A stretch of DNA of 32,000 nt. It comes from Akkermansia muciniphila ATCC BAA-835. Lineage in GTDB: Bacteria > Verrucomicrobiota > Verrucomicrobiia > Verrucomicrobiales > Akkermansiaceae. Below, piece after piece: positions 3,762-29,791 of this stretch. The notes below the pieces were generated by a model. That model saw only the letters and a program-made list of their open reading frames with translations. It was not told the origin of the DNA and did not search any database. Each line of letters opens with the position of its first letter. Within the stretch, counting starts at the first letter, position 1. The DNA lies in contig NC_010655.1 in NCBI RefSeq assembly GCF_000020225.1, forward strand, positions 2,550,001-2,582,000, read 5' to 3'. The position numbers and the translations under genes are program-made.

Positions 3762-4910
3762 ATGCCCCTGTCCGCCGTTTTCCACACTTCCTCCCTTCAG
3801 AAGCAAGTGGCCGCCCTGAGCGACGCATTCGCCATCGCAGGAGAATTCCTCCATTGCGACGTCATTAACAGCGGCCATATCAACATGACCTTCCGGGCCA
3901 CCTACAGGAAGCCGGACGGCACCACCCGCCGCTACATCTTCCAGCGCGTGAACGATGCCGTGTTCCCATGCCCCAGGGATGTCATGCACAACGTGGAAAA
4001 GGTGACCAACCATATCCGCTGGAAAATGTTCCGGGTGCTGAAAACGCCCTTCCGCCAGACGCTGAACCTGTACTCCGCGCGGGGCGGCCGCAAATACCTG
4101 GAAATTCCCGGTTCCGGCTTCTGGCGCTGCTACAACTGCATAGAAAACACCCACACGTTCGACGTAGCGGACCATCCCCGCCAGGCTTACGAAGCAGCCC
4201 GCGCTTTCGGCGCTTTCCAACAGCTCCTGTGTGACATGAATCCGGAGGACATCCATGAAACCATTCCGTTCTTCCACCATACCCGCAGGCGCTTTGACCA
4301 TTTGGAAAAAGCCGCGGCAGCAGACTCCCACGGACGTCTGAATACCTGCCGCAAGGAGCTGGACTTCATCCGCCGCCGTGAACGTTATGTGGACGTGCTG
4401 CTGGATCTCCAGGAACGGGGGGAGCTCCCCGTCAGAATCGTCCACAACGACACGAAAATCAACAACGTGATGCTGGACAGGGAGACGGACAAGGCTGTCT
4501 GCGTCATTGACCTGGACACCGTCATGCCCGGGAGCGTCCTGTACGACTTCGGAGACATGGTGCGCACCATGACCTCCCCTGCGGCGGAAGATGAAGAAAA
4601 TCTGGATAAAACCTTCCTGCGCATGCCCATGTTCGAGGCCGTCGTCAAGGGATACCTGGAGGCCTCCAGAGAATTCATCACGCCGCAGGAAGTCTCCAAA
4701 CTCGCTTTTTCCGGTCTGCTTATCACGCTGGAAACGGGAATCCGCTTCCTGACGGACTACCTGGAAGGGGACGTTTATTTCAAAACGAAAAAAGAACGGC
4801 ACAATCTGCACCGTGCCCGCACCCAGCTCAGGCTGGTGGAAAGCATGGAAGAGCAAATGCCTGAAATGGAAGAATGCGTCCGGAAATGCTTCCAGACTGT
4901 TAACGGCTGA
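3762..4910 (+). CDS. nahK: N-acetylhexosamine 1-kinase-like phosphotransferase (APH/NahK family)
   Basis: The 382-aa protein shows long collinear similarity, from memory, to Bifidobacterium NahK/LnpB. Examples: RIVHNDTKINNVMLD...VIDLDTVMPGSVLYDFGDM versus VTHNDTKLNNILMD...IIDLDTIMPGSMLFDFGDS, and RFLTDYLEGDVYFKTK...HNL..ARTQLRLVESME versus RFLADYLEGDIYFATK...HNL..TRTQIKLVQEME. Confidence 0.88.
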   Translation: MPLSAVFHTSSLQKQVAALSDAFAIAGEFLHCDVINSGHINMTFRATYRKPDGTTRRYIFQRVNDAVFPCPRDVMHNVEKVTNHIRWKMFRVLKTPFRQTLNLYSARGGRKYLEIPGSGFWRCYNCIENTHTFDVADHPRQAYEAARAFGAFQQLLCDMNPEDIHETIPFFHHTRRRFDHLEKAAAADSHGRLNTCRKELDFIRRRERYVDVLLDLQERGELPVRIVHNDTKINNVMLDRETDKAVCVIDLDTVMPGSVLYDFGDMVRTMTSPAAEDEENLDKTFLRMPMFEAVVKGYLEASREFITPQEVSKLAFSGLLITLETGIRFLTDYLEGDVYFKTKKERHNLHRARTQLRLVESMEEQMPEMEECVRKCFQTVNG

Positions 4911-12142: not shown

Positions 12143-13453
12143 TTAAAGATAGCTGCGCACCACGCCGGAGACGCGTTCACGAGCCGCGGCAATGCGCTTG
12201 CGCAATTCCAGCGTGTAGGCTTCCATATCCCGGATGGGGGACTGGGCCACCCCGGAAATCATGGCCGCCTGGGCTACCGCCGGGCACTCCCATTCAATAA
12301 TGCGGGGATCAATGGGCTTGGGAATCACGTAGTCGATGCCGAAGCTGAGCGGGGCTCCCCCGTAAAGGTCAATCACTTCCTGGGGGACGGGCTCCTTCGC
12401 CAGATCGGCCAGGGCGCGGGCGGCGGCAATCTTCATCTGTTCATTGATGACGGAAGCGCGCACATCCAGGGCGGCACGGAAAATAAAGGGGAAACAGGAA
12501 ACATTGTTCACCTGGTTGGGCCAGTCGGAACGGCCGGACCCCATAATGCAGTCAGGCCGCGCTTTTTTAGCATCCTGATACGTAATTTCCGGGTCCGGAT
12601 TCGCACAGGCGAAAATGATGGGGGAAGGAGCCATGAGCTTCACCATGTCCTGCGTGAGCAGTCCCTTGGTGGACAGCCCCAGGAACACGTCCGCTCCGGT
12701 AAGGGCCTCCTCCAGGGAGCAGTCTTCCGACTGGGAGAACTGCGCTTTCGTGGCATGAAGATCAATGCGTCCGGTATGAATCAGCCCCTTGGAATCAAAC
12801 ATGTAGATATGTTCGCGACGCACCCCTAACGTCATGTAGAACTTGGCGCAGGAAATGCCGGCAGCGCCGGCCCCCACGACGACAACCTTCATATCCTCCA
12901 GCTTGCGGCCCGTCAACTCCGCGGCGTTCAGCAGGGCGGCGCCGGAAATCACGGCCGTGCCATGCTGGTCGTCATGAAACACGGGAATATTCATCTCCTC
13001 CCGCAGGCGTTCTTCCACCATGAAGCATTCCGGAGCCTTGATGTCCTCCAGATTGATGGCGCCGAAAGTGGGTTCCATGGTCTTGATCGTCTCAATCAGC
13101 TTTTCCGGTTCCTTCACGTTCAGCTCAATGTCAAAAACGTCAATATCCGCGAACACCTTGAACAGAACGCCCTTGCCCTCCATCACCGGCTTGGAGGCAT
13201 CCGGACCGATATTGCCCAGTCCCAGAACGGCGGTGCCGTTGGTGATTACGCCCACCAGATTGGAGCGACCAGTGTACAGGGCGCTTTGAGAAGGATCCTC
13301 TTTAATGCGGAGGCAGGGCTCGGCCACGCCCGGGGAATAGGCAAGAGTCAGATCCCGTTGTGAAAAGCAGGGCTTGCAGGGCAGCGTTTCCACCTTGCCG
13401 GGGCGGGGCTGGGAATGGTACTGCAAGGCATCTAATCTAATATCGGAACTCAT
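12143..13453 (-). CDS. NAD(P)-dependent malic enzyme (short form, no PTA domain)
   Basis: Starting at ATG 13453 gives MSSDIRLDALQYHSQPRPGKVETLPCKPC...DLTLAYSPGVA...VITNGTAVLGLGNIGP...PVMEGKG.LFK..A.IDVFDIE...FGAINLEDIKAPECF...HDDQHGTAVISGAALLNA...VVVGAGAAG, the textbook MaeB/YtsJ-type layout. The longer listed ORF (to 14056) runs across the divergent promoter region and into the neighbouring gene, so it is rejected. Confidence 0.93.
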   Translation of the reverse strand: MSSDIRLDALQYHSQPRPGKVETLPCKPCFSQRDLTLAYSPGVAEPCLRIKEDPSQSALYTGRSNLVGVITNGTAVLGLGNIGPDASKPVMEGKGVLFKVFADIDVFDIELNVKEPEKLIETIKTMEPTFGAINLEDIKAPECFMVEERLREEMNIPVFHDDQHGTAVISGAALLNAAELTGRKLEDMKVVVVGAGAAGISCAKFYMTLGVRREHIYMFDSKGLIHTGRIDLHATKAQFSQSEDCSLEEALTGADVFLGLSTKGLLTQDMVKLMAPSPIIFACANPDPEITYQDAKKARPDCIMGSGRSDWPNQVNNVSCFPFIFRAALDVRASVINEQMKIAAARALADLAKEPVPQEVIDLYGGAPLSFGIDYVIPKPIDPRIIEWECPAVAQAAMISGVAQSPIRDMEAYTLELRKRIAAARERVSGVVRSYL

Positions 13454-13621
13454 GATTGTAATGAAAAAACAGAAAATCGAGCCTTGCTTGCACCACAGAA
13501 CAGACATGCATTCAAGTAAATAATCAATTAATTGCGTCACACGCTCCGGAAAAGGAAAACCTCTTTTTACATTGATAGAGTCCCCCGGGTATGCTAGTAG
13601 GTAGCCGATAATTAACCGCCT

Positions 13622-16600
13622 GTGACCATGGAACATACTCCACCCCTGCCTTCCGGATTTAATATCAACGGCTATCTTATTCAATCCCTGAAACAGACGG
13701 CCCCTCTCTGCCATGTTTATTACGTTTCGGATGCCAACCATGTTCCATACCTGCTCCGCGAATTCTGCCCCCAGGGGCTCGCTGTGCGCGACCCGGAAAG
13801 CGGAAAACTGCGTTATCCGGAAAACACGGATATTGAACGGGAAGTTCTTCCGCTGAAAAATGACTTCGAAGCCCAGTTCCGAACCGGTTCCCTGTGGGAA
13901 ATTTCCGCCCTGGGCACCCTGTACCTGGCTTATGCCATTCCCGGCAGCCATGCCGCAGCGGAGCCTCCTCCCGGTCCGGTCATCCCCCCGGCGGAGCCCC
14001 TCCGGAGCGATCAACGGCCGCTGTCCACTCCCGGAACCGGGGCGGCGCCCGTCCATGCGGGTTCCCTTCCCCAGCCTCGGAAAAAGAAAAACTCCGTTGG
14101 CCTATGGCTCCTTACCCTGCTCCTGCTGGGAGGCGCATGCGGAACTTATTATTACACCCAGACAACTTCGGAAAAATCCGTCTCTCTGCAGGAACCGGCC
14201 GTCCCCCAATCCGGCAGGGAAAAGAAGAAAGCTGCCAAACCGGAAAAGAAAGCCGTACTGCCCGCCGTAAAGGCGGAAACCCCTCCGGAACAGAAAAACG
14301 CCGTGCCCGCCTCCCCGTCCGGAGACGTGGAACAGCCGAAAAAAACACCGCCGCCTATTTCCTCCGGAGAAAGGAACGGAAACGCCCCGGACATTTTAAA
14401 GAATGAATCCGCCGCCTCCCCTGCTCAGACTGCCGGAGAATCCGATGTCCCGGCCCATGACGCTGCAGACGGAAAACAGCCGGAACCGGAAAATTCCGCC
14501 AACCGGAAGGAAGCACAGGCGGCACAATCTGCCGTCACCCCTGTTCTTGAAACGCGTCTACGGGGAAAAGCCTCCAGGCAAACCACCAATATGGGAGACG
14601 TCAACTCCTATGTGAGGAAATTCGCCAAGCCCATGACGCTGAACCAGTGGAAAAAGCAATACGCCAACCTGTACACAAGCTGGTTCGGCAATTCCGAGGA
14701 AGTAGCCAAAGGCTGGATCACCACCTTCGGCCCCCTGGGATTCCGAGCCCGCGGTTTGGACGCCTCCTGGCCGGACACGAACTTCCGCGGCTTCTTCCCC
14801 AAGACCATGCTGGATCCCAACGGGGAACCCGTGGCGAACCTCTACACGGTCACCCAGGTGATTGAGGGTTCCCCCGCTGAAAAATACATCAAGGAAGGAG
14901 ATCTGATCCTGGGCATTGACGGACACCCCTTCAAAACGTCTCAAAGCCTGGACGTGCTTTACGGCCCTTATCAGCACCAAAACAGGCGCGGCCTGGACAT
15001 GCACGCGGGCCTACTGGTGGACAAGGCGGAAGGAGCCGGAAAAATAACCCTGAATATTATTCCCGCGGAAAGCGTGGAAAAAATCCAGGGCATCCAGCCT
15101 CTCTGGAAAGAAGTTTTACGGGAGGAACGGGCCCAAAAGCCCGTCTCCCTTTCCATTCCGGTAAAGGGCGGCCAGCAGGTGCGCCTGCGCGTGGATGACG
15201 GCGGCAACGGCATTGGCAGCGACGGTTTTGAATGGTCTGGCCTGAGGCTGGAAGGTCCCGGCGGAACCGTTCCGCTGACCCGGGCCCTGCAATACACCGT
15301 AGGTTACGGGGAGGCCAAGTATGACCCCAAAAGCAGCGTATGGCAGGCCCACGCCGTCTCTTCCCTGGTTTTTGACATCCCCAGGGGAGACTGGGAACTC
15401 AAAGGGACAGGAACCCCCAGGTGGTCTGCCTCCGTTGGCGTGACCGTACAGGTGGGAGGCTCCTCCACTCTGCCGGACGCCGTGAAGAAATACGTAAAAA
15501 ATGTCACCTTTAAAATACCCCAGCTGGGCTCCTATGCCCTCGGCTTCCCCAAAAACTGCGCCAAGAGCAAGGCGGTTGTCCACATGATGAGTGAATGGCT
15601 GGCGGCCCAGCAGCGCGAGGACGGTTCCTGGGAACGTCCGGGCGGCTACTGCGGCAACCATTATGATACGGGCTGGGCCGGGCTGGCCCTGATGGCCACG
15701 GGCAACCCTAAATATGACCCCGTCATTAAAAAGGCGGCGCACTACATCGCCTTCTCCGGCTCCCAGTGCTGGTGGGCCGTCCCCCAGGCATCCGCAGGTA
15801 TTTTTCTGTGTGAATACTGGCTGCGCTACCGGGACAACTCCGTTCTCCCAGCCATCCGCAACGGCGTGCAGCGCATGAAAAACGAAGTCCTTTACGGGGA
15901 CTTCGTCACCGGCCACGGCATTCACCCGGGCTACCGGGGAACAGGCGTCAGCATTGGCGGCTCCCACATGTGCCTGTTCCTGGCGCTGGCCAGCAAAACC
16001 CCGGCGCGCACGGAAGACGATGTGCTGGACAAAATGATGGATCATGCCCAGTCCATCTGCCCCACCGGCATGGGGCCCTACGGCCGCATGACGGAAACCT
16101 TCACCTTTGAACCCAACCGCGAATGCGGGGGAACCTACTCCGGCCGCCATGGCCCGTACTACATTGCTTCCCTCATCTGCGGCGGCCCGGAACTGTACAC
16201 CAAAAACAGCCGCATCATGTACGGTGAAGGCCCCATCGGCGGCTGTGACCAGGGCCACTCCTCCGAGACGCTCTCCATCATGTGGGCCCTTCCCGCCTAC
16301 TGGCGAACCAATCCGGAAGTATATTACAAAAACATGGAGGCTTTTCGATGGAAACTGACGCTGTTGCGCCCCTTTGACGGCGGCATGATGCAGAACCCCA
16401 ACCGCCTGGAACTGATGACGGCGGATCCCGTCATCGGCACCTACATCCGCACCAGCATCTGGATCACGGCCCTCTGCGCGGAACGCCGGAACCTGGCAAT
16501 CACGGGCAAGCCGGAATTTCAGGCAAAGACATTCCGGAAGGTGCCCCCTATCATCGATACGGAATCCCGCTTCCTGAATACCTACGTGCGCAACTGGTCC

Positions 16601-18004
16601 ATGGTAAATGCGGCGCTTGGGGCCAAGGCGCCCGCCTCCCTGAAATCCGCCATCCGGGAACTGAAAAACATTCCTGTGGAACAAGGCTGCCGCTTTAAGC
16701 TTATCAATGTCGTCAACAACCGCGCCCTCCCCATCGCCAAGGCTATCATGGAAATTCCCGGGGTGGACCAGCTCACCAAGGCCACCTGCGCGGAAATGGT
16801 TCTGGGCATGGATGTGCGCATTTTCTTTGAACCCAAGCGCAAGGACGATAACCCCCAACCCGGGGAATATTCTTTAACCGTGGATGTCCAGCAGCCGCTG
16901 GGCGGCCGCGCCCTGGGGCTTCACCGCGACAAGGAACTGGAAGGAAAAGCCAATTCCGCCTACAAATATGACTTTGCCGGCACGGTGCAATTCAGCGACA
17001 CGACCACCTTCTCCCCCATGGAAACCATTTCCTGGACGCCCAATTCCAAATTCGGCGGACAGTGGAACGTTTACTCCTATAAAAAGGAACTCAGCGGTCC
17101 CACCCAGCCGGGCGTGCAGAAAATGAACGCCAAAATCAAATGGCGCGTCAATGACCTGGATGTGGAATACGACCGCCCCATCGCCGTGGGCGGCTTTGAA
17201 GTGGGATGCCCGGAAAAAGCCCTTTCAGTCACCAACTGCAACCATCTGTGGGTGCCGGGCATCCTGATCCGGGACCACGGCAACTGGGGATGCTCCTTCC
17301 ATCTGCCGGACGGAACCTACATTTCCGCGGCCTCCCAGGGCAACCAGATAGAGGTGTACGACAAAACGGACAAAAAGAAGGAAACAACCTGGGTTTCCCC
17401 GAATGACTCCTGCCTGACTCAAGGTTCCCGTTGCCTGTTCCGCGTTTCTACGGACTGGCACGGCCTGGAATGCCGCGTGCGTGAACTGAAACTGCTGGGC
17501 AGTTCCACGGAGGAAGTCGCGGACTATAAGCTGAAAGCCTCTACCGGAGGCCGTGTGGATACGGCCAAACTACTGGACAGGGACGCTACCACCGTTGAAG
17601 AACTGGACGCGTCCCCCTCGGAAGACGAGCCCCTGGTGCTGGAACTCACCCTGAAATCCCCTGCCGCCCTGCGCGCCGTGGACATCAAGATTGAAAAGGG
17701 CAACAACCGTTTAGTCATTGAAGCCAACAAAGGCGGCAAGTGGATTCCTATTCACTGGGGCTCCCTGGGGGCCTCTACTGCCGGCGTCAGCGATGCTCAG
17801 AAAGCCATGTACGCGAATGAACCGGAAGTACTGCGCATGCTCCAGCTTCCGGGCAATGGATTTATCAAATGCATGCGGACGTTTGACCCTGTCACCACCA
17901 ACAGGCTGCGCATCAAGCTCTTCCAGAAGGGCGGAAAAGTCCGCCTTGCGGAACTGCACGTGTACAAGGCAAACGCCGTCAGAAATATGGCTCTCCAGTC
18001 TTAA
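13622..18004 (+). CDS. Giant single-pass membrane protein with an N-terminal cytoplasmic module shared with the 21886 gene
   Basis: 1460-aa ORF with a GTG start at 13622; the alternative ATG is at 13628. The order is: conserved N-module (aa 1-105), Pro-rich linker, KKK plus TM helix (VGLWLLTLLLLGGACGTYYY, about nt 14096-14152), a long K/P/E/A low-complexity spacer, then the ectodomains. These are a PDZ-like segment (VTQVIEGSPAEKYIKEGDLILGIDGHPF), an NPCBM-like segment (RLRVDDGGNGIGSDGFEWSGLRLEG), a squalene-cyclase/prenyltransferase-like QW repeat (WLAAQQREDGSWE, then GWAGLAL), and a C-terminal discoidin-like segment (LLDRDATT...LRAVDIKIE...GGKWIPI...TNRLRIKL...LAELHVY). Confidence 0.9.
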   Translation: MTMEHTPPLPSGFNINGYLIQSLKQTAPLCHVYYVSDANHVPYLLREFCPQGLAVRDPESGKLRYPENTDIEREVLPLKNDFEAQFRTGSLWEISALGTLYLAYAIPGSHAAAEPPPGPVIPPAEPLRSDQRPLSTPGTGAAPVHAGSLPQPRKKKNSVGLWLLTLLLLGGACGTYYYTQTTSEKSVSLQEPAVPQSGREKKKAAKPEKKAVLPAVKAETPPEQKNAVPASPSGDVEQPKKTPPPISSGERNGNAPDILKNESAASPAQTAGESDVPAHDAADGKQPEPENSANRKEAQAAQSAVTPVLETRLRGKASRQTTNMGDVNSYVRKFAKPMTLNQWKKQYANLYTSWFGNSEEVAKGWITTFGPLGFRARGLDASWPDTNFRGFFPKTMLDPNGEPVANLYTVTQVIEGSPAEKYIKEGDLILGIDGHPFKTSQSLDVLYGPYQHQNRRGLDMHAGLLVDKAEGAGKITLNIIPAESVEKIQGIQPLWKEVLREERAQKPVSLSIPVKGGQQVRLRVDDGGNGIGSDGFEWSGLRLEGPGGTVPLTRALQYTVGYGEAKYDPKSSVWQAHAVSSLVFDIPRGDWELKGTGTPRWSASVGVTVQVGGSSTLPDAVKKYVKNVTFKIPQLGSYALGFPKNCAKSKAVVHMMSEWLAAQQREDGSWERPGGYCGNHYDTGWAGLALMATGNPKYDPVIKKAAHYIAFSGSQCWWAVPQASAGIFLCEYWLRYRDNSVLPAIRNGVQRMKNEVLYGDFVTGHGIHPGYRGTGVSIGGSHMCLFLALASKTPARTEDDVLDKMMDHAQSICPTGMGPYGRMTETFTFEPNRECGGTYSGRHGPYYIASLICGGPELYTKNSRIMYGEGPIGGCDQGHSSETLSIMWALPAYWRTNPEVYYKNMEAFRWKLTLLRPFDGGMMQNPNRLELMTADPVIGTYIRTSIWITALCAERRNLAITGKPEFQAKTFRKVPPIIDTESRFLNTYVRNWSMVNAALGAKAPASLKSAIRELKNIPVEQGCRFKLINVVNNRALPIAKAIMEIPGVDQLTKATCAEMVLGMDVRIFFEPKRKDDNPQPGEYSLTVDVQQPLGGRALGLHRDKELEGKANSAYKYDFAGTVQFSDTTTFSPMETISWTPNSKFGGQWNVYSYKKELSGPTQPGVQKMNAKIKWRVNDLDVEYDRPIAVGGFEVGCPEKALSVTNCNHLWVPGILIRDHGNWGCSFHLPDGTYISAASQGNQIEVYDKTDKKKETTWVSPNDSCLTQGSRCLFRVSTDWHGLECRVRELKLLGSSTEEVADYKLKASTGGRVDTAKLLDRDATTVEELDASPSEDEPLVLELTLKSPAALRAVDIKIEKGNNRLVIEANKGGKWIPIHWGSLGASTAGVSDAQKAMYANEPEVLRMLQLPGNGFIKCMRTFDPVTTNRLRIKLFQKGGKVRLAELHVYKANAVRNMALQS

Positions 18005-18206: not shown

Positions 18207-19166
18207 ATGTTCATCAGGACAACGCTCCTTTTTCCTATTCTTTTTCTCTCACTTTCAGGATCCTCCGTCATGGCGGCAACCCCTTGGGTTTCTGACAGGA
18301 ACTGGGAACTCGTTTTTGAAGACAATTTTGACGGCTCATCGCTGAACGCACACAACTGGAGCCGCATTGATTACGTAGGCTATAATGCCCCGGACTGGCG
18401 CAAGTACCAATCCCGGGACGAAAGCCTTGTGGAATTCCGGGAAAAGGACGGCAACTCCGCCATGACCCTGTGGGGAAAATACGGGGACTACACCACCCAA
18501 ACCAACCAGACTGCCCCAGCCAGGACATACGCCTGCGGAGGGGTATATTCCCTGAAAACCTTCTCCTTCCAATATGGATACGTAGAAGTCCGCGCCAGAT
18601 TCGACTGTGTGCAGGGCGTCTGGCCGGCCATCTGGATGATGCCCAAATCCGACAGCATCGGCTGGCCTGTCGGAGGGGAAATTGACATCATGGAACACCT
18701 GAATTACGAAGGCCGTGTTTACCAGACAATCCACTGGTCGCAAAACGGCGTTCCCAACCAGGATAACTCCCAGGGGGTCACCCCCGGTTGGAACGATGGT
18801 GCCGAAAAAGCAAACTGGCATACCTACGGGATGGAATGGACGGAAGAAGGCATCACCTTTTATGTGGATGGAAAAGCAACCGGTTCATTCAAAAAGCCCA
18901 ATAACGCAAACTGGCCCTTTGACAAGGACGGAAACGAATTCTACCTGATCATCGACCAGCAGATTGGAGGCAGCTGGGTGGAAAACGCAGGAGTTAATAA
19001 GGGAATCGACCAAAATACGCTGGCCAATTCCGGAGCCGCATTCGACATCGATTATGTCAAAGTCTATTCCTCAAGCATCTACAACCACCTCGTTCCGGAA
19101 CCCGCTGTGGCTTCGCTGGGCCTGTTGGGAATGGCCTTGCTGGCGGCTCGCCGCAAAAGAAACTGA
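18207..19166 (+). CDS. Glycoside hydrolase family 16 enzyme with signal peptide and PEP-CTERM anchor
   Basis: Signal peptide MFIRTTLLFPILFLSLSGSSVMA. The GH16 catalytic motif is GGEIDIMEH (E-x-D-x-x-E), with W..IWMMP upstream. The C-terminus is VPEPAVASLGLLGMALLAARRKRN (PEP-CTERM). Confidence 0.9.
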   Translation: MFIRTTLLFPILFLSLSGSSVMAATPWVSDRNWELVFEDNFDGSSLNAHNWSRIDYVGYNAPDWRKYQSRDESLVEFREKDGNSAMTLWGKYGDYTTQTNQTAPARTYACGGVYSLKTFSFQYGYVEVRARFDCVQGVWPAIWMMPKSDSIGWPVGGEIDIMEHLNYEGRVYQTIHWSQNGVPNQDNSQGVTPGWNDGAEKANWHTYGMEWTEEGITFYVDGKATGSFKKPNNANWPFDKDGNEFYLIIDQQIGGSWVENAGVNKGIDQNTLANSGAAFDIDYVKVYSSSIYNHLVPEPAVASLGLLGMALLAARRKRN

Positions 19167-21885: not shown

Positions 21886-24795
21886 ATGACAATCCCTCCT
21901 CCCCCTGCCCTGCCGCCCCATTTCAACATAGGCGGCTACAAAATCACGGCGCTTGTAGAAAGCGGTCCGGACTATCATCTGTACCAGGCTCTTTCCCCGG
22001 AAGGCCATGCCGTCCTGATACGCGAATTCTGCCCCCGGGGCCTCGTTACGCGTGACCTGGCCAGCGGAGAACTGGCTGTCTCTCCGGAAAATGAATCCCA
22101 ATTCGCCCAGGCCCGGGAAGCTTTTGAAACCCAATACGCAGCCAATGCAGAAGGCAAGCTGAGGGGATTCGGCACCGTGCTCTTCCTTTACCCGCTTTCT
22201 CCGGCGCAGCCCCAGCCGGCTGCAGCGCATGCCCAGGCTCTCCGCCCCGCAAAAAAACCGCAGCAACCGCAACTGCGGAAACCCGTAGTCGGCGCCGCCA
22301 TCCCCGGAACGCCGCTGCCGCGGGTAAAGCACTCCGGAGGGTTTCCGGTCATCCCGGTCATTGTGACCGGGATGCTCGCCCTCTTCGGATTTCTGGGCTA
22401 CCAGATACTCAAGGATAAAGAAGAACCCGTCGCTAAAGCCGTTACCGTGCCCGTACCGGCTCCGCCCAAACCCAAACCCAAGCCCGCTCCGCCAAAACCG
22501 GAGCCCGTGGTGGTCACTCCTGAACCGGAACCCGTGGTGGTCGCTCCCGAACCGGAACCGGAGCCTGAACCGGAGCCGCCTGCTCCCGACCTTTCCCCCT
22601 CCCCGGAAGTCATTGCCATGGAAAAGGCTTTACGGGAGGAAGCTATCGCGTCCAAAGGGAAATTTTCTGAAAAACTGTTGAATAAATATCCCCATTACGC
22701 GGAAGCCTACGTACGGGATTACGTGAAAAAACGCGGAGGCAGTTTTTCTCCGGATTTTGAAAAATGGCTGAAAAACACGAAAAACAATCGTGAAGTCTTC
22801 GCCATGTTCTTCCCGCCGGACCCCAGCGTCGCCACCAATGTGGCTTTCATGATTGATGAACTGGGGCTGGAAACAACGGAAAAATATGACCAGCTCGTTC
22901 TGGCGTTCGCAGTAGGACGCCGCGAATTCGGCATGGGAGCCTTCGACCTTACCCATCAGGGCCGTTACGTTGATGCCCTGGGCAAGCTGAATGATCTGAG
23001 ATCCTCCGGAGTCATGCCTCCGCCAGCGGACCTGTACTGCGCCGGGAAACCGCCCGTCAACTGGTATGGGAACGCCCCCCGCACCGTGGATGAGGAATGC
23101 TACAAAAAGGTGGAAGCCTATCTGGACCGCAAAAAAATTACCCCCAAGCAGGCCTGGCTCAGGAAATACCCCACCGTCTCGGAAATTGGGGACTCCGCCA
23201 TTACGGAAGACAACCTGGCCGGCTTTCTGCACGAATACATGTACCGCCACGGCCAGCTGAGGCGCAAGAGGGATCCCTTCCCCACTCCGGTGGAATTCTT
23301 TTCCTACCTGGTGGATAAATATGAACATTGCGGTGATTTGCGCGACGTGGACCGCAAGCGTGTGGAATGGACCGGCGTCTCCCTGGAAGGAACGCCCTGG
23401 CCGGCCATGATGGCCCTTTCGGAAACGCGCCCTCTGCGTGAGTGCGACAGCGTGTGGGAACGCTACATGGGCCAGCGGGGCCCGACCCGCCTGTGGCTGT
23501 ACGGCCCCTACCGGGCGGATGACGATAAGGAACCGCCCATCCTGTTCAGCTTTGACCCGGATCCGGAATGGTCCAGGGAATCCAATGAACGCAAGCTCCA
23601 TGAAGGCGGCGTGTGCGGCACCATGTCCCTTATCTCCCGCAATTCCCAGATCGCGCGCGGCATTCCCGCCGCCCCCGCCGGGCAGCCTGGCCACGGCAAC
23701 CTGATGACCACCCATTTCACCGGCAACGGCTGCTGGCTGAGCGTGGGACAAAGTGTGGACACCCTGAAAGCCACCACGGGATTCTGGTACTTCCGGGATT
23801 CCAACGCACCGCGCACTGGCAATGCGGAATACCAGTCTGGACTGGCCCTGTCCATGAATATCGACTATGAAAAGTTCATCGACAGCCGATTCGCCATGAA
23901 CATTTACAAACTGGCGGCCACCGGCTCCTCCACGGAAGAGACGGCCGACCCTTCCGCCACGCTCCCCAAGGAATTCACGCAGACCGCCATGAGGACCGTG
24001 CTCAAGGCCAACCCGTTCTACACGGAAGCCTGGTACACGCTCTTCAAGCAGGAACCCCAGGACCTCATGGGAGCCACCAAGATGGTGGATGAAGTGAGGG
24101 AGGCCCTGCCGGACGGCATGGGCATCAGAAAACTCTGGAAAACGCGCAAATACGTTTCCTCCGTAGGCCGCGGCGACAAAAACGGCAAGGACATGCTGGC
24201 CAACCATGCCAGGGAATACGTCAATGTGCTCTGCTCCGTGATTCTGGAAAATGCCCTGAAACAGGAATATGACTATAAGACCTTCCAGTGGGCCGAACTC
24301 ATGTCCTGGCTCAAGTCTGAATCCAAACGCAACTCCTACCCGGAGCCTCAGGCCGCCTATCAGATAGCGTATGCCAAGGCCCAGGGCACGGACAGGCTCA
24401 AAAGAACCGTAGACAGGGGATTCAAGAAAGCCCTCAATTTCTACCGGGACGACAGCAACGCCCTGAAGGAACCCAAGGATGTGGATCAGGAGGAAATGTC
24501 CTTTTCCCTGGCCGCCCTGTGCCAGGCCCTGCCCAAGGAAGAACTGATCCCCTGGATGAAAAACATGCTGGACACCTGTCCGGACGGGTTCAAATACAAG
24601 CCCAAAAATAAGAAGGAAACGAAAATCCACCCCTTCTACGACGCCCTGACGAAAAACTACATGTCTCTGGCTGACGGTTCGGAAAAATCCCGCGTCAAGT
24701 CGGAAATGAAAGAGGCTTCCGACAGAATTCTGGAGCTTTCCCAGGACAAGAAAGGCGATGGGAATGGGTCCTCCGGACGCCGCCGGAGACGCTGA
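21886..24795 (+). CDS. Large single-pass membrane protein carrying the same N-terminal cytoplasmic module as the 13622 gene
   Basis: 969-aa ORF. The N-module (aa 1-105) is collinear with the 13622 protein. A TM helix follows (FPVIPVIVTGMLALFGFLGYQIL), then a PKPKPKP / PEPVVV(T/A)PE x2 / (PE)4 linker, then an ectodomain of about 730 aa. That ectodomain contains GGVCGTMSLISRNSQIARGIPAAPAGQPGHGNL...SVD, a transglutaminase-like Cys-His-Asp spacing with C577, H603 and D625. The tail is basic (GRRRRR). Confidence 0.9.
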   Translation: MTIPPPPALPPHFNIGGYKITALVESGPDYHLYQALSPEGHAVLIREFCPRGLVTRDLASGELAVSPENESQFAQAREAFETQYAANAEGKLRGFGTVLFLYPLSPAQPQPAAAHAQALRPAKKPQQPQLRKPVVGAAIPGTPLPRVKHSGGFPVIPVIVTGMLALFGFLGYQILKDKEEPVAKAVTVPVPAPPKPKPKPAPPKPEPVVVTPEPEPVVVAPEPEPEPEPEPPAPDLSPSPEVIAMEKALREEAIASKGKFSEKLLNKYPHYAEAYVRDYVKKRGGSFSPDFEKWLKNTKNNREVFAMFFPPDPSVATNVAFMIDELGLETTEKYDQLVLAFAVGRREFGMGAFDLTHQGRYVDALGKLNDLRSSGVMPPPADLYCAGKPPVNWYGNAPRTVDEECYKKVEAYLDRKKITPKQAWLRKYPTVSEIGDSAITEDNLAGFLHEYMYRHGQLRRKRDPFPTPVEFFSYLVDKYEHCGDLRDVDRKRVEWTGVSLEGTPWPAMMALSETRPLRECDSVWERYMGQRGPTRLWLYGPYRADDDKEPPILFSFDPDPEWSRESNERKLHEGGVCGTMSLISRNSQIARGIPAAPAGQPGHGNLMTTHFTGNGCWLSVGQSVDTLKATTGFWYFRDSNAPRTGNAEYQSGLALSMNIDYEKFIDSRFAMNIYKLAATGSSTEETADPSATLPKEFTQTAMRTVLKANPFYTEAWYTLFKQEPQDLMGATKMVDEVREALPDGMGIRKLWKTRKYVSSVGRGDKNGKDMLANHAREYVNVLCSVILENALKQEYDYKTFQWAELMSWLKSESKRNSYPEPQAAYQIAYAKAQGTDRLKRTVDRGFKKALNFYRDDSNALKEPKDVDQEEMSFSLAALCQALPKEELIPWMKNMLDTCPDGFKYKPKNKKETKIHPFYDALTKNYMSLADGSEKSRVKSEMKEASDRILELSQDKKGDGNGSSGRRRRR
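22465..22578 (+). repeat. In-frame tandem repeats encoding a Pro-Lys / Pro-Glu linker
   Basis: (ccc aaa/aag)x3 at 22465-22485. Two imperfect 27-nt units follow: ccggagcccgtggtggtcactcctgaa (22498-22524) and ccggaacccgtggtggtcgctcccgaa (22525-22551). Then (ccg gaa/gag)x4 at 22552-22578. Confidence 0.9.
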
Positions 24796-24807: not shown

Positions 24808-25917
24808 GTGCACCTCTACGTCCACATTCCTTTCTGCCACCGTATTTGCCCGTACTGCGCTTTCTTCAAGCACACGCCGGCCTCCACGGACATGAAATCA
24901 TTCATCCGTGCTCTGGGCAGGGAGGCGGAATCCCGCGCAGCCGCTCTGGCCACAAACCGCGGAGGGGAAACGGCTACGCTTTATTTTGGCGGGGGTACTC
25001 CCTCCATGCTCTCGGACACGCATCTGGGGCATTTTATGGAAACCCTGGATCGTCTCGTGCCCGTGGACAAACTGGACGAATTCTCCTTTGAGGCCAACCC
25101 CGCCACCTTTACGGAAAAAAAAGTGCGCTTTTGGCGCAGCCTGGGCATGACACGTGTCTCCCTGGGCGTGCAGTCCCTGGATTCCGGCATCCTGCATCTG
25201 CTGGGGCGCGAACATACCCCGGCCCAGGCTCTGCACTCCGTGGAAATGCTGAAAAATGCGGGAATGCCCCATATCAACATGGATCTCATGTTCGCCATTC
25301 CGGGGCAAACCCTCTCCATATGGGAAGCCACCCTGAAGGAAGCTGTCCGCGCCGGAACGGACCATATCTCCGCCTACAACCTCACCTATGAAGAAGACAC
25401 GGAATTCTTCCGGAGCCTGCTGAGGGGAGAGAAAAGGCAGGATCCGGACGAAGACGCCGCCTTTTTTGAACTGGCGGAACACATGCTGGAGGCGGCAGGC
25501 TTGCGCCACTATGAAACCTCCAACTACGCCCGGGAGGGCTGCATCTCCCCCCACAACATGGCCTACTGGAAGGGAGAGGACTATGTGGGCATAGGGCCTG
25601 GCGCGGTCAGCACCATCAACGGCATACGGTACTCCAACACGCGGGATACGGACGCCTACATACGCAGCACGCTGGAAAACGGCCTCCCCCTTTCCGAACA
25701 GGAACCCGTCACCGAGGAAGACTACCGCTTGGAACGCATTGCCCTGATGCTCCGGACGGATGAAGGATTGCCGCTGAAATACATTCTGCCGGAATCCCGT
25801 CCTCTGCTGGAACAATACCGGGAACTGGGCTTGGCGGACATTTCCCCGGAACAAAGGTTCATCCTGAAAGGCCGCGGACGCCTGCTCGTGGACGCCATCG
25901 CAGCGGAACTGTGCTGA
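24808..25917 (+). CDS. hemW: Radical SAM HemN-like protein (heme chaperone HemW / coproporphyrinogen III oxidase-like)
   Basis: GTG start 12 nt after the upstream stop. The N-terminus (M)HLYVHIPFCHRICPYCAFF carries the CxxxCxxC radical-SAM cluster motif in the HemN/HemW context, followed by GGGTPS and ...SAYNLTYEE.T.F. Confidence 0.88.
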   Translation: MHLYVHIPFCHRICPYCAFFKHTPASTDMKSFIRALGREAESRAAALATNRGGETATLYFGGGTPSMLSDTHLGHFMETLDRLVPVDKLDEFSFEANPATFTEKKVRFWRSLGMTRVSLGVQSLDSGILHLLGREHTPAQALHSVEMLKNAGMPHINMDLMFAIPGQTLSIWEATLKEAVRAGTDHISAYNLTYEEDTEFFRSLLRGEKRQDPDEDAAFFELAEHMLEAAGLRHYETSNYAREGCISPHNMAYWKGEDYVGIGPGAVSTINGIRYSNTRDTDAYIRSTLENGLPLSEQEPVTEEDYRLERIALMLRTDEGLPLKYILPESRPLLEQYRELGLADISPEQRFILKGRGRLLVDAIAAELC

Positions 25918-27028: not shown

Positions 27029-28309
27029 TCAAGCCTGTTCAGGACGGATGCAGTCCGCGCCGAAATACGGCACAAGCGCCTCCGGAATCCGGATGGAGCC
27101 GTCCGGCTGCTGGTAAGTTTCCAGAAGGGCCACATACAGCCGCGGCAGAGCCGTGCCGGAACCGTTCAGGGTGTGGCAGAACTGGTTCTTGCCGTCGGCA
27201 TCCTTGTAACGCAGGCGCATGCGGCGCGCCTGGTAGTCCGTAAAGCAGGAACAGGAAGAAACTTCCAGATACTGCCCCTGTCCCGGAGCCCATACTTCAA
27301 TATCATACGTCTTGGCGGAGGAAAAACCGAGGTCTCCCGTGCAGAGCTCAATCACCCGGTAATGCAGCCCCAGTTTTTGAAGGATGGATTCCGCATGGCT
27401 GCGGAGCACTTCCAGCTCCCGGAAGGAGTCTTCCGGCTTTAAAATCTGCACCAGTTCCACCTTGTCAAACTGGTGGACGCGGATCATACCGCGGTTGATG
27501 CGGCCGGCGCTTCCGGCTTCCCGGCGGAAGCAGGGCGTGTACGCGGCCATCTTGATGGGCAGGTCGCTTTCCTGTAAAATGGTATCCCGGTACAGGTTGG
27601 TGACCGGCACTTCCGCCGTAGGAATCAGGAACATCTGCTGGTCTTCCGTGCCGTACATGTCTTCCTCAAATTTAGGAAGCTGGCCGGTGCCTTCCATGCA
27701 CTCCCTTTTCACCACAAAAGGAACGCCCACTTCCTGATAACCGTTTTCCACGGTCTGCGTATTCAGCAGGAAGTTGATCAGGGCACGTTCCAGACGGGCG
27801 CCCGCCCCACGGTACACCACAAAACCGGAGCCCGTAATCCGTGCTCCGTCTTCAAAGGAAATCATGCCCAGATTCGCGGCCAGTTCCACATGGTCCTTCG
27901 GGTTTTCAATAGCGGGCTTTTCTCCCCAAAGCTTGATTTCCGGGTTGGCCGTTTCATCCGCACCCACGGGGCATTCCAGGTGCGGCAGGTTGGGAATGTT
28001 CATCAGCAGGGAGGTGAGCTGGGCTGCATTTTCCTCCGCGACACGGTCCAGTTCCCGGATGCGGTCCCCGATTTCGCGCACGCGCGCTTCAATGGAGGAA
28101 GTGTCTTCCCCTTTCTTCTTGAGCATGCCGATCTGCTTGGAGGTGGCATTGCGCTCGGACTGCAGGGCCTGCTTTTCCGTCTCGGCATTGCGGCGCGCTT
28201 CATCGCAGGCCAGAACGTCATCAACAAGCTTCCACGCGTCGCCGCTGCGGGGCTTTAGCCGCGCTTTCACTTCTTCCGGATTTTCTCGTATTACACGGAT
28301 GTCGAGCAT
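27029..28309 (-). CDS. serS: Serine--tRNA ligase
   Basis: Starting at ATG 28309 gives MLDIRVIRENPEEVKARL... (coiled-coil tRNA-binding arm). Class II motifs are present (...YTPCFRREAGS.G...RG.IRVHQF.KVE..., ...SSCS.C.DYQARR..., ...HTLNGSG.A..R). The listed 887-aa ORF is an upstream extension antisense to the dehydrogenase gene. Confidence 0.95.
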   Translation of the reverse strand: MLDIRVIRENPEEVKARLKPRSGDAWKLVDDVLACDEARRNAETEKQALQSERNATSKQIGMLKKKGEDTSSIEARVREIGDRIRELDRVAEENAAQLTSLLMNIPNLPHLECPVGADETANPEIKLWGEKPAIENPKDHVELAANLGMISFEDGARITGSGFVVYRGAGARLERALINFLLNTQTVENGYQEVGVPFVVKRECMEGTGQLPKFEEDMYGTEDQQMFLIPTAEVPVTNLYRDTILQESDLPIKMAAYTPCFRREAGSAGRINRGMIRVHQFDKVELVQILKPEDSFRELEVLRSHAESILQKLGLHYRVIELCTGDLGFSSAKTYDIEVWAPGQGQYLEVSSCSCFTDYQARRMRLRYKDADGKNQFCHTLNGSGTALPRLYVALLETYQQPDGSIRIPEALVPYFGADCIRPEQA

Positions 28310-28669
28310 AACGCGCACAGCTTGCACTCCATCCCCCCGCCACGCAAGCCAAATGAACGGCCTTCCATGGAAAAACGTTACCCTTTCACGGAAAAACGCT
28401 GCGCGCAGAGGCATGCTTTCCCGAATGCCGCCCCTTTCCGGAAACTGCCGTTTTTCCCGTGTCAGACAATGATTTTTTTCCTTCTCAGGAAAACCGTACA
28501 GCAGGAGGACCGGACTCTCCATGTTTCCGGGAATCATGGACATCCGGCGCCAGGGTGCATTACAGGAAGGACCGGGAAGGAACTTCCCCCCGGTTCCAAC
28601 AGGCGGAGTTCCTTTCATCACTATTTGTTCTTGAAGAATCCGGGCGGCAAAGGATAGTGTAAGGGCATC

Positions 28670-29791
28670 ATGCAACAAACCGCACGCGCCGCTGTCCTGA
28701 CAGCACCAAAGACATTTGAAATCCGTGAATATCCCATTCCCGCCATCGGAGACGATGAAATGCTGATCAAGGTGGAAGCCTGCGGCGTTTGCGGAACGGA
28801 CGGCCACGAATACAACCGGGACCCCTTCGGCCTCTGCCCCGTGGTCCTGGGCCATGAAGGCACCGGGGAAATCGTCGCCATGGGCAGGAATATCACTAAA
28901 GACACCGCCGGAAATCCCGTAGCGCTGGGGGACAAGATCGTCACCTGCATCATTCCCTGCGGCACCTGTGACGCCTGCCTGAATACTCCGGCCCGCACCA
29001 ACCTGTGCGAAAATGTGGGCGTGTATGGCCTGATGCCTGACGACGACGTGCATCTGAACGGCTACTTCGGGGAGTACCTCGTCATCCGCAAGGGCTCCAC
29101 ATTTTTCAATGTTTCCGGCATGACGCTGGACCAGCGCATTCTGGTGGAACCCGCCGCAGTGGTGGTCCATTCCCTGGAACGCGCCAAGTCCACCGGGCTC
29201 CTCAAGTTCAATTCTGTGGTTCTCGTGCAGGGCTGCGGCCCCATCGGCCTTCTTCAAATCGCCACGCTGCGCACGCTGGGCATTGAAACCATCATCGCTG
29301 TGGACGGCAATGACTCCCGCCTGGAACTGGCCAGGGAAATGGGAGCCTCCCGCACGTATAACTTCACCCGGTACGCGGATCTGAACGAACTGCTGGATGC
29401 CGTGAAAAAGGACAACGGCGGCCGCCTGGCGGACTTCGTCTTTCAGTGCACGGGCGTAGGCAAGGCCGGGGCCAACGCCTGGAAGTTCGTGAAGCGCGGC
29501 GGCGGCCTGTGCGAAGTGGGCTTTTTCATGGATGGAGGGGAAAGCGTTATCAACCACCATTACGACCTCTGCAACAAGGAGGTAACCGCCGTAGGCTCCT
29601 GGGTGTACTCCCCGCAGGACTACCCGACCACATTCGACTTTCTGAAGCGAGCCTACGGCATCGGCCTGCCGCTGACCAAGCTGATCTCCCACCGCTTCAA
29701 GCTGGATGAAATCGCGGAAGCCCTGGAAACCAACGTCCAGATGAAAGGCATCAAGATTGCCGTCATTTGTAATTGCAGTAAAAATATATAA
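28670..29791 (+). CDS. Zn-dependent medium-chain dehydrogenase/reductase (alcohol/polyol dehydrogenase family)
   Basis: Catalytic-zinc signatures VEACGVCGTDGHEY and GHEGTGEIV. A structural-zinc Cys cluster (CIIPCGTCDACL...C) and a Rossmann motif VLVQGCGPIGL are present. The last roughly 9 codons (ICNCSKNI*) are encoded by AT-rich DNA continuous with the downstream islet. Confidence 0.9.
   Translation: MQQTARAAVLTAPKTFEIREYPIPAIGDDEMLIKVEACGVCGTDGHEYNRDPFGLCPVVLGHEGTGEIVAMGRNITKDTAGNPVALGDKIVTCIIPCGTCDACLNTPARTNLCENVGVYGLMPDDDVHLNGYFGEYLVIRKGSTFFNVSGMTLDQRILVEPAAVVVHSLERAKSTGLLKFNSVVLVQGCGPIGLLQIATLRTLGIETIIAVDGNDSRLELAREMGASRTYNFTRYADLNELLDAVKKDNGGRLADFVFQCTGVGKAGANAWKFVKRGGGLCEVGFFMDGGESVINHHYDLCNKEVTAVGSWVYSPQDYPTTFDFLKRAYGIGLPLTKLISHRFKLDEIAEALETNVQMKGIKIAVICNCSKNI
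29779..29790 (+). repeat. Left copy of 12-nt direct repeat TAAAAATATATA flanking the AT-rich islet
   Basis: Read directly: taaaaatatata at 29779-29790, overlapping the last codons of the dehydrogenase CDS. An identical copy is at 30543-30554. The AT-rich context raises the chance-match probability. Confidence 0.5.

Follow-up and report, generated by a model that had tools for sequence, protein, structure and literature searches.

Pseudokinases as such are well known: they are recognised as scaffolds and allosteric switches, and the bacterial families catalogued so far all possess both kinase lobes. A 2025 atlas of bacterial serine/threonine kinases distinguishes seven such families (ActPs1-3, CP1, DYD, DLHK and GLW), which are two-lobed (bioRxiv 10.1101/2025.01.12.632604), and neither its text nor that of a review contains an entry for an N-lobe-only, truncated, Akkermansia or Verrucomicrobia pseudokinase. 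Literature phrase searches for N-lobe-only kinase domains gave just papers on the "N-lobe" of calmodulin and transferrin. The present analysis concerns a domain that does not display the complete bilobal fold of these families. It forms the N-terminus of two large membrane proteins, here called paralogues A and B, which are encoded in a 32,000-nucleotide stretch of Akkermansia muciniphila ATCC BAA-835 (NC_010655.1, positions 2,550,001 to 2,582,000 of the forward strand; the whole stretch, with a G+C content of 56.6%, is referred to as the window). What is new here is this unannotated N-lobe-only domain.

The module covers about 105 residues in each protein and lies on the forward strand at 13622..13936 in paralogue A, where profile and structure evidence define it, and at 21886..22200 in paralogue B, where it was delimited by BLASTP, AlphaFold2 (AF2) and Foldseek. 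The two copies share 38 of 105 positions (36% identity, BLASTP E 1e-15), and their Smith-Waterman score of 162 compares with 26.6 ± 4.7 (best 51) for 2000 shuffled sequences, corresponding to a Z-score of 28.7. An earlier reading of the window made from its letters (the sequence-only reading) had proposed that the two proteins begin with a common module, and had named a shuffled-sequence test as a way of challenging the proposal; both the alignment and this test bear it out. Both translations contain the motifs LP..FNI.GY.I..L....P..H.Y, RD..SG.L, FE.Q and GT..(L/F).Y, with REFCP occupying residues 46-50 in each (paralogue A being numbered from the GTG at 13622). The alignment, described earlier as gapless over most of its length, contains 4 gap positions, and the SG.L..PEN block is one residue longer in paralogue B.

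As a single sequence, the module found no match in Pfam, NCBIfam or the PDB sequences, with Pfam Pkinase absent even at E ≤ 1. Neither protein reaches the gathering score of PF00069 (Pkinase), and a word-indexed protein search returned near-identical fragments only. The blank single-sequence searches would suit a non-kinase origin, in which the resemblance to kinases would come from convergence or be an artefact that short motifs produce. Profile comparisons gave a different picture. A profile (A1) covering the two modules together with close variants of them, when run exhaustively with hmmsearch against 1.84 billion representative proteins, obtained 51 matches. The strong ones were orthologues and further N-lobe-only proteins, of a 1463-aa and a 920-1010-aa type as well as P0060 (849 aa), P0053 (295 aa) and P0051 (220 aa). 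Lower down, at E 4e-12 to 1e-3, came two-lobed proteins with a significant Pfam Pkinase domain, on the first ~100 residues of which the module falls, and these bear the pattern "...LP.G...Y.I...[IV]KEFFP.G...RD...". Direct alignment by hhalign of a profile of 11 N-lobe-only sequences (A3) with one of 12 kinases (A6) placed module columns 6-104 on kinase columns 13-122 with a probability of 98.9% and an E value of 3.9e-17. Against the PDB, the sole significant match of A3 was PpkA (5hnv, E 5e-6), a type VI secretion system (T6SS) kinase, the aligned segment being LPSG...GGFGIVY...IAIKEYMP..LAKR. Residues L9, P10, R46, E47, F48, P50, R56, F82, G98 and T99 of the module correspond to the L, P, K, E, R, F and T that are invariant in the kinases, and the signature of the subfamily is present: an LP.G extension before β1, [KR]E[FYN]xP after β3, an Arg six residues further on, the αC Phe and a GT.Y.V β5. 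The motif given in the sequence-only reading, Y.I...LG.GGFG.VY...VAIKE(F/Y)xP...A.R, is a real one, which defines the subfamily that includes PpkA, P0072, P0078 and kinases of Akkermansia sp.

The predicted structures agree with the profiles. The AF2 model of module A, computed from a 7-sequence alignment, has a mean predicted local distance difference test (pLDDT) score of 86.5 and the topology of a kinase N-lobe (β1-β3, αC, β4-β5), its elements being β1 at residues 18-26, β2 at 30-36, β3 at 42-48 (LLREF), a hairpin inserted between β3 and αC, αC at 71-86 with Phe82, β4 at 92-96 and β5 at 99-105. In Foldseek searches of the PDB with this model, PpkA (5x1r) came first (template-modelling score 0.76, E 3e-4), followed by PknI, DYRK1A, TTBK1, PknB and CLK1. 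A separate model of full-length paralogue B shows the same topology at residues 18-103 (pLDDT 75-87), with β1 at 18-26, β2 at 30-36, β3 at 42-48 (VLIREF), the hairpin at 54-56/63-65, αC at 67-84, β4 at 90-94 and β5 at 97-103, and its top two PDB matches were both PpkA, over 108 columns. The kinase N-lobe that the sequence-only reading had seen in the module therefore emerges from profiles and from structure alike. The HMMER, hhalign and PDB results and the two AF2 models with their Foldseek matches are mutually independent, and the LP.G extension that the module shares is specific to the subfamily, which leaves a non-kinase origin scarcely credible. It can be held with high confidence that the module is an autonomous, dead domain homologous to only the N-lobe of Hanks-type Ser/Thr kinases, with the PpkA-like subfamily as its parent.

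Several elements required for catalysis have disappeared from this N-lobe. The Gly-rich loop between β1 and β2 (GxGxxG) is gone, with LKQTAPLC in paralogue A and LVESGPDY in paralogue B standing where kinases have LGQGGFGI. The β3 (VAIK) Lys is replaced by Arg46 in 10 of the 11 N-lobe-only sequences, being kept only in P0051, and the members vary at the adenine-contacting VAIK Ala position, which holds Leu, Val, Lys, Gln or Glu. The αC Glu of the Lys-Glu pair has been defined as the residue three positions after the Phe of the "RF" motif (bioRxiv 10.1101/2025.01.12.632604). This Phe is retained as Phe82. In MAFFT alignments the position in question holds Gln in both paralogues, while the remaining N-lobe-only sequences have Ile, Leu, Ser, Lys, Met or Arg there; in the hhalign register it is deleted altogether. 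A conserved acid does occur one residue after Phe82 (the Glu of FE.Q), off the catalytic position, and to read it as the αC Glu is mistaken. This acid, Glu83, might conceivably form a salt bridge with Arg46. In addition, some 10 residues corresponding to the L..L.HPNIV segment of kinases are deleted after αC, and the chain leaves the kinase fold at the hinge following β5 (...GTLYLAYAIPG, around residue 105) to enter disordered Pro-rich sequence. Motif scans of both proteins found no HRD catalytic loop, DFG or activation loop, and the C-lobe is absent. The three losses originally proposed, those of the Gly-rich loop, of the Lys in favour of Arg and of the whole C-lobe, are all confirmed. Lacking the Gly-rich loop, the β3 Lys, the αC Glu and the C-lobe, and with a shortened αC-β4 segment, the module can neither act as a kinase nor bind ATP productively.

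The near invariance of Arg46 and Glu47 invites the thought that a remnant of the nucleotide pocket, with its Arg, binds a nucleotide or another metabolite and makes the module a small-ligand sensor, and non-canonical ligands have been suggested for some pseudokinases with a VAIK Lys-to-Arg change (bioRxiv 10.1101/2025.01.12.632604). The module has nevertheless lost half of this pocket (hinge, C-lobe, catalytic loop and DFG) along with the Gly-rich loop, and the variable VAIK-Ala position speaks against a conserved pocket, so that sensing of this kind appears very improbable.

In place of the hinge and C-lobe, each module gives way, as the sequence-only reading had noticed, to a Pro-rich linker with basic residues and then to one transmembrane (TM) helix. 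In paralogue A the cytoplasmic linker (13937..14095) is Pro-rich and ends in the basic patch PRKKK, and the single TM helix (14096..14155, residues 159-178) has the sequence VGLWLLTLLLLGGACGTYYY. In paralogue B the cytoplasmic linker (22201..22350) is rich in Pro, Gln and Lys, carries the basic residues LRKP...RVKH and is modelled by AF2 with pLDDT < 50, and the single TM helix (22351..22413) was placed by AF2 at residues 156-176, with the hydropathy peak at 150-176. Both proteins are predicted to have an N-in topology, the module facing the cytoplasm and the large C-terminal portion lying beyond the inner membrane, because they carry no signal peptide at the N-terminus, basic residues stand before the TM helix and related membrane kinases are arranged alike.

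The nearest two-lobed relatives give an indication of how such a module may have arisen. When a hidden Markov model (HMM) built from the N-lobe-only sequences was used to score every protein assembled for the analysis, a clear gap separated N-lobe-only members (116-141 bits) from two-lobed ones (≤ 50 bits). The best of the latter (38-50 bits) mostly lack the HRD Asp and/or DFG Asp, or the β3 Lys; these degenerate relatives include P0062 (a PASTA protein with HQG and GFS), P0064, P0061, P0065 (DIG), the third domain of P0059 (Lys to Ser, HGS) and P0063 ("protein kinase [Akkermansia sp.]", MDO5470037.1), which has LIREHAP, HHG, RFG and Sel1 repeats. Where VAIK, HRD and DFG are all intact, kinases reach no more than 36 bits. 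This ranking of scores, which is not a tree, suggests that catalytic death preceded the loss of the C-lobe. The history would then have begun with catalytic death and continued with the loss of the C-lobe, after which the module would have been duplicated in an ancestor of Akkermansia and joined to different ectodomains. Since the modules of A and B are only 36% identical, the duplication is old.

Intact kinases of the same subfamily (GQGGFGITYLA…VVIKENxP…HRDIKP.N…DFG) do exist in metagenome-assembled genomes (MAGs) of Akkermansia sp., in clusters of 1-12 members. On Akkermansia-type metagenome contigs, intact membrane-anchored kinases with KE[NF]xP occur as tandem arrays, some with ankyrin, Sel1 or DUF805 tails (L017 8350-15737, with three Pkinase genes in ~7.4 kb; L018 905-2326 and 10408-11628); the KE[NF]xP subfamily is expanded in these rarer Akkermansia lineages, unlike in A. 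muciniphila. The module could accordingly be imagined as a kinase-directed regulator that pairs with the N-lobe of a two-lobed subfamily kinase, as allosteric activator or decoy, and couples the ectodomains to Ser/Thr phosphorylation. N-lobe to N-lobe dimerisation does activate PknB-type kinases (PMC6213207), and kinases with the same N-lobe signature, partly in tandem, are at hand in Akkermansia sp. genomes. The 90%-identity clusters that hold the window proteins, by comparison, comprise 1859 and 2107 sequences, sizes which make A and B core genes of a heavily sampled species, and no large-cluster kinase appeared among the best 120 hits. As the clusters of intact kinases have 1-12 members and those of the window proteins about 2000, A. 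muciniphila proper probably has no kinase of this subfamily. A Ser/Thr kinase has been reported from one A. muciniphila strain, solely on a foreign 40-kb island that the type strain lacks (PMC9415379), and the modules are kept regardless. A role directed at a subfamily kinase is therefore rather improbable.

The module is under purifying selection, being maintained and not decaying. The ratios of non-synonymous to synonymous substitution rates (dN/dS), obtained from comparisons of the window with other Akkermansia species (four in the case of A, five in that of B), were as follows for A and B, respectively: 0.074 and 0.20 in the N-lobe module, 0.23 and 0.17 in the linker before the TM helix, 0.21 and 0.033 in the TM helix, 0.32 and 0.15 in the linker after it, and 0.09 and 0.10 in the ectodomain. 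Orthologues of both A and B are present in five other Akkermansia/Akkermansiaceae genomes, in four of which they lie 7-12 kb apart on one contig. The module family is narrow and lineage-restricted to Akkermansia-type bacteria; the view of any spread beyond Akkermansiaceae comes from the representative-protein search, the locus search having found Akkermansia only. These data bear on the possibility that the module is an inert relic or topology determinant, a stably folded cap in the cytoplasm that holds the signal anchor in its N-in orientation or stabilises the protein. Such a cap would fit conserved positions that are fold-core positions common to kinases, the lack of any module-specific invariant surface residue except Arg46 and the lack of a conserved signalling gene nearby. 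Yet module A, with a dN/dS of 0.07, is about as constrained as the enzymatic ectodomain, and its value lies 3-4 times below those of the adjoining linkers, which is more constraint than a spacer needs; the module has also persisted in at least four architectures and through an old duplication whose copies are 36% identical. An inert cap is hence considered unlikely, if less so than the kinase-directed role.

Taken as a whole, the observations are probably best explained by a non-catalytic kinase N-lobe that serves as a cytoplasmic interaction module. The lobes of kinases offer a precedent, the N-lobe being an established dimerisation and allosteric surface in kinases and pseudokinases, and this analogy is the reason for reading the module as an interaction unit. 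N-lobe-mediated dimerisation has been described for PknB and for the MviN pseudokinase (PMC6213207, PMC12599244). By analogy, the surfaces of the N-lobe would mediate contact, as they do when kinases and pseudokinases dimerise; the module would self-associate, pair A with B or dock a cytoplasmic partner, and the contact would organise, or report on, the periplasmic domains. The specific function of protein-protein interaction by dimerisation or docking is put forward tentatively, as a proposal that stands somewhat below an even chance.

A number of points weigh against an interaction role. The probable lack of a subfamily kinase in A. muciniphila argues against a kinase as partner. The segment after αC contributes to the PknB-type back-to-back interface. 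It is about 10 residues shorter in the module, by comparison with kinases, and that interface may accordingly be missing. The selection data are not uniform either, since module B evolves no slower than its own linkers (dN/dS 0.20 versus 0.17 and 0.15). Finally, the module's invariant residues L9, P10, Y33, E47, R56, F82 and T99 are invariant in full kinases as well, so that their conservation may reflect fold stability, not a special binding surface.

On the other side of the membrane, the two proteins are built differently. Ectodomain A (14156..18004) consists of a low-complexity linker, a PDZ-like and an NPCBM-like region (approximately residues 409-445 and residues 497-543, respectively, both under the curated Pfam cut-offs) and a DUF6288 domain (PF19805, residues 622-963), which meets its gathering score (E 3.6e-36, 125.6 bits versus a cut-off of 26.3). 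Ectodomain B (22414..24795) consists of a PKPEP-type linker, an unannotated core and C-terminal helical repeats. Within the core (window 23371-23703, residues ~496-606), the motifs GGVCGTM (Cys577) and QPGHGN (His603) are invariant across six orthologues. No family was found for ectodomain B by a profile search of the PDB, by Pfam on the six orthologues or by NCBIfam, and AF2 models its core (residues 458-646) with pLDDT < 50, so that Foldseek matches outside the N-lobe carry no meaning. The GGVCGTM region weakly resembles the EGGICM region of P0060 (residues 505-564; BLASTP E 0.003 at the GG[VI]C motif), a protein with a Pfam Transglut_core match under the cut-off (E 0.002). The core of B, whose gene adjoins that of an L,D-transpeptidase, may conceivably be transglutaminase-like or a cysteine peptidase. 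A stretch of A within the DUF6288 region (residues 774-868, 15941-16225) and one of B (residues 496-592, 23371-23661) are 27% identical over 100 aa (BLASTP E 6e-4); hhalign gave this pair a probability of 21% and an E value of 0.001. The two ectodomains may therefore be not wholly unrelated, and the earlier statement that everything after the TM helix is unrelated nearly holds, the exception being this marginally matching stretch of ~100 aa. As to the swappable ectodomains foreseen in the same reading, at least four architectures occur behind the module, which supports the idea in part.

Paralogue A is encoded on the forward strand at 13622-18004 (1460 aa from the GTG at 13622; ACD05916.1, GenBank product "DUF6288/PDZ domain-containing protein"). 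GenBank places its start at the ATG at 13628, giving 1458 aa, so that residue numbering can move by 2, and the choice between the two start codons is ambiguous. The GTG is the first start after a stop codon; in other strains, 1472-aa forms occur with an extra MLTGSRIITCHVT leader, which the stop codon shuts off in the window. Paralogue B is encoded at 21886-24795, also on the forward strand (969 aa; ACD05921.1, "hypothetical protein" in GenBank). As their accession numbers run consecutively with those of neighbours of known locus tag, ACD05916 and ACD05921 almost certainly correspond to Amuc_2107 and Amuc_2112. The text of no paper mentions either name, according to a literature text search. 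The Amuc_2107 protein was found in sarkosyl membrane fractions, with log10 label-free quantification (LFQ) values of 8.2-8.8 (PMC4960237 supplement).

Between the two genes lie a GH16 gene (18207-19166; ACD05917), a GH3 gene, which runs on the minus strand, and the gene of an L,D-transpeptidase (ACD05920). In the literature the first is Amuc_2108, a family-16 glycoside hydrolase, and the last Amuc_2111; the GH3 gene beside GH16 is presumably Amuc_2109. Exact-sequence comparison showed paralogues A and B, the GH16 and the L,D-transpeptidase to match ATCC BAA-835 proteins identically. The C-terminus of Amuc_2108 shows a PEP-CTERM-like sorting motif, slightly under the Pfam cut-off (E 4.8e-4). 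Thirteen nucleotides downstream of paralogue B begins the gene of HemW (24808-25917), a radical-SAM heme chaperone, which also adjoins B orthologues in two distant loci (L014 13061-13969 and L016 12970-13884). A functional tie between B and this neighbour was considered and dismissed, HemW being a housekeeping heme chaperone, and their adjacency probably reflects conserved synteny rather than a functional link. Likewise, a Pkinase gene that L016 carries at a distance of 5 kb from its B orthologue was considered and set aside, as it belongs to another subfamily (VALKVL) and its proximity is probably coincidental. The neighbours of A and B (GH16, GH3, L,D-transpeptidase and HemW) include no conserved signalling gene, and no T6SS, FHA or PP2C genes were found near the modules.

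Two open reading frames (ORFs) of the window extend beyond their recognisable domains. The mechanically called ORF at 12143-14056 on the minus strand (637 aa) corresponds to a malic enzyme whose Pfam domain starts only at residue 220, from which the real start is probably at ~13400-13440. The part of this ORF antisense to the module-coding region is then probably untranslated, and with such a start 13440-13621 would be a divergent promoter region. The seryl-tRNA synthetase ORF at 27029-29692, on the same strand, encodes 887 aa with Pfam domains only from residue 462, and its N-terminal extension is probably an artefact of mechanical ORF calling, or else an unannotated fusion. A second kinase-like fold in the window, an APH-family (aminoglycoside/choline-kinase-like) phosphotransferase encoded at 3762-4910, showed no relation to the N-lobe module.

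The broader significance of the module lies in a lone N-lobe that persists under purifying selection while fused to different extracytoplasmic parts, which makes it a minimal system for the roles of N-lobe surfaces beyond catalysis. It might conceivably be a new autonomous signalling or assembly domain, namely a switch that works by dimerisation or docking, independently of phosphorylation, and connects periplasmic envelope or mucin-related domains with cytoplasmic partners, although this wider view is more doubtful than the interaction function in itself. The analysis also offers, in terms of structure and evolution, a first point of entry to two core, abundant and uncharacterised envelope proteins of a gut species of strong medical interest, encoded next to mucin-glycan hydrolases (GH16 Amuc_2108 and GH3) and the L,D-transpeptidase Amuc_2111. 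As the module is missed by Pfam and NCBIfam, a family model could be built for it.

Among known systems, the closest relatives are the PpkA-like kinases (5hnv/5x1r; LP.G...GGFG.Y...[IV]KE[FY]xP...R), with which the module shares the LP.G extension, KE[FY]xP...R, the β3-αC insert, the αC Phe and GT.Y.V, and many of which have the same N-in, single-TM topology as the module proteins. It differs from them in lacking the Gly-rich loop, the catalytic Lys, the αC Glu and the C-lobe, and in the deletion of 10 aa after αC. The nearest full-length relatives are the two-lobed pseudokinases of the subfamily (P0063, P0062 and the third domain of P0059), which have also lost the Lys (to Arg or Ser) and/or the HRD Asp and DFG Asp; P0063 even has the same Arg (LIREHAP) and the N-in TM architecture of the module proteins. 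Unlike the module, they keep a full, though degenerate, C-lobe. In terms of function, the closest analogues are the MviN/MurJ pseudokinase (ActPs3) and EssB/YukC of type VIIb secretion, in which a dead kinase with a substituted VAIK Lys is joined by a TM tether to an extracytoplasmic domain and acts in dimerisation or scaffolding rather than catalysis (PMC12599244, bioRxiv 10.1101/2020.05.09.085852). These proteins keep both lobes and belong to another family, whereas the module is an N-lobe alone and is restricted to the Akkermansia lineage. The KIND domain of eukaryotic SPIRE, PTPN13 and very-KIND is a non-catalytic kinase C-lobe. Like the module, it represents half of a kinase fold surviving as an autonomous, non-catalytic interaction unit, but it is the opposite half, eukaryotic and of unrelated origin. 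If the wider view of an autonomous signalling or assembly domain is true, the module would be the N-lobe counterpart of KIND, and half a kinase fold would be stable and selectable in bacteria.

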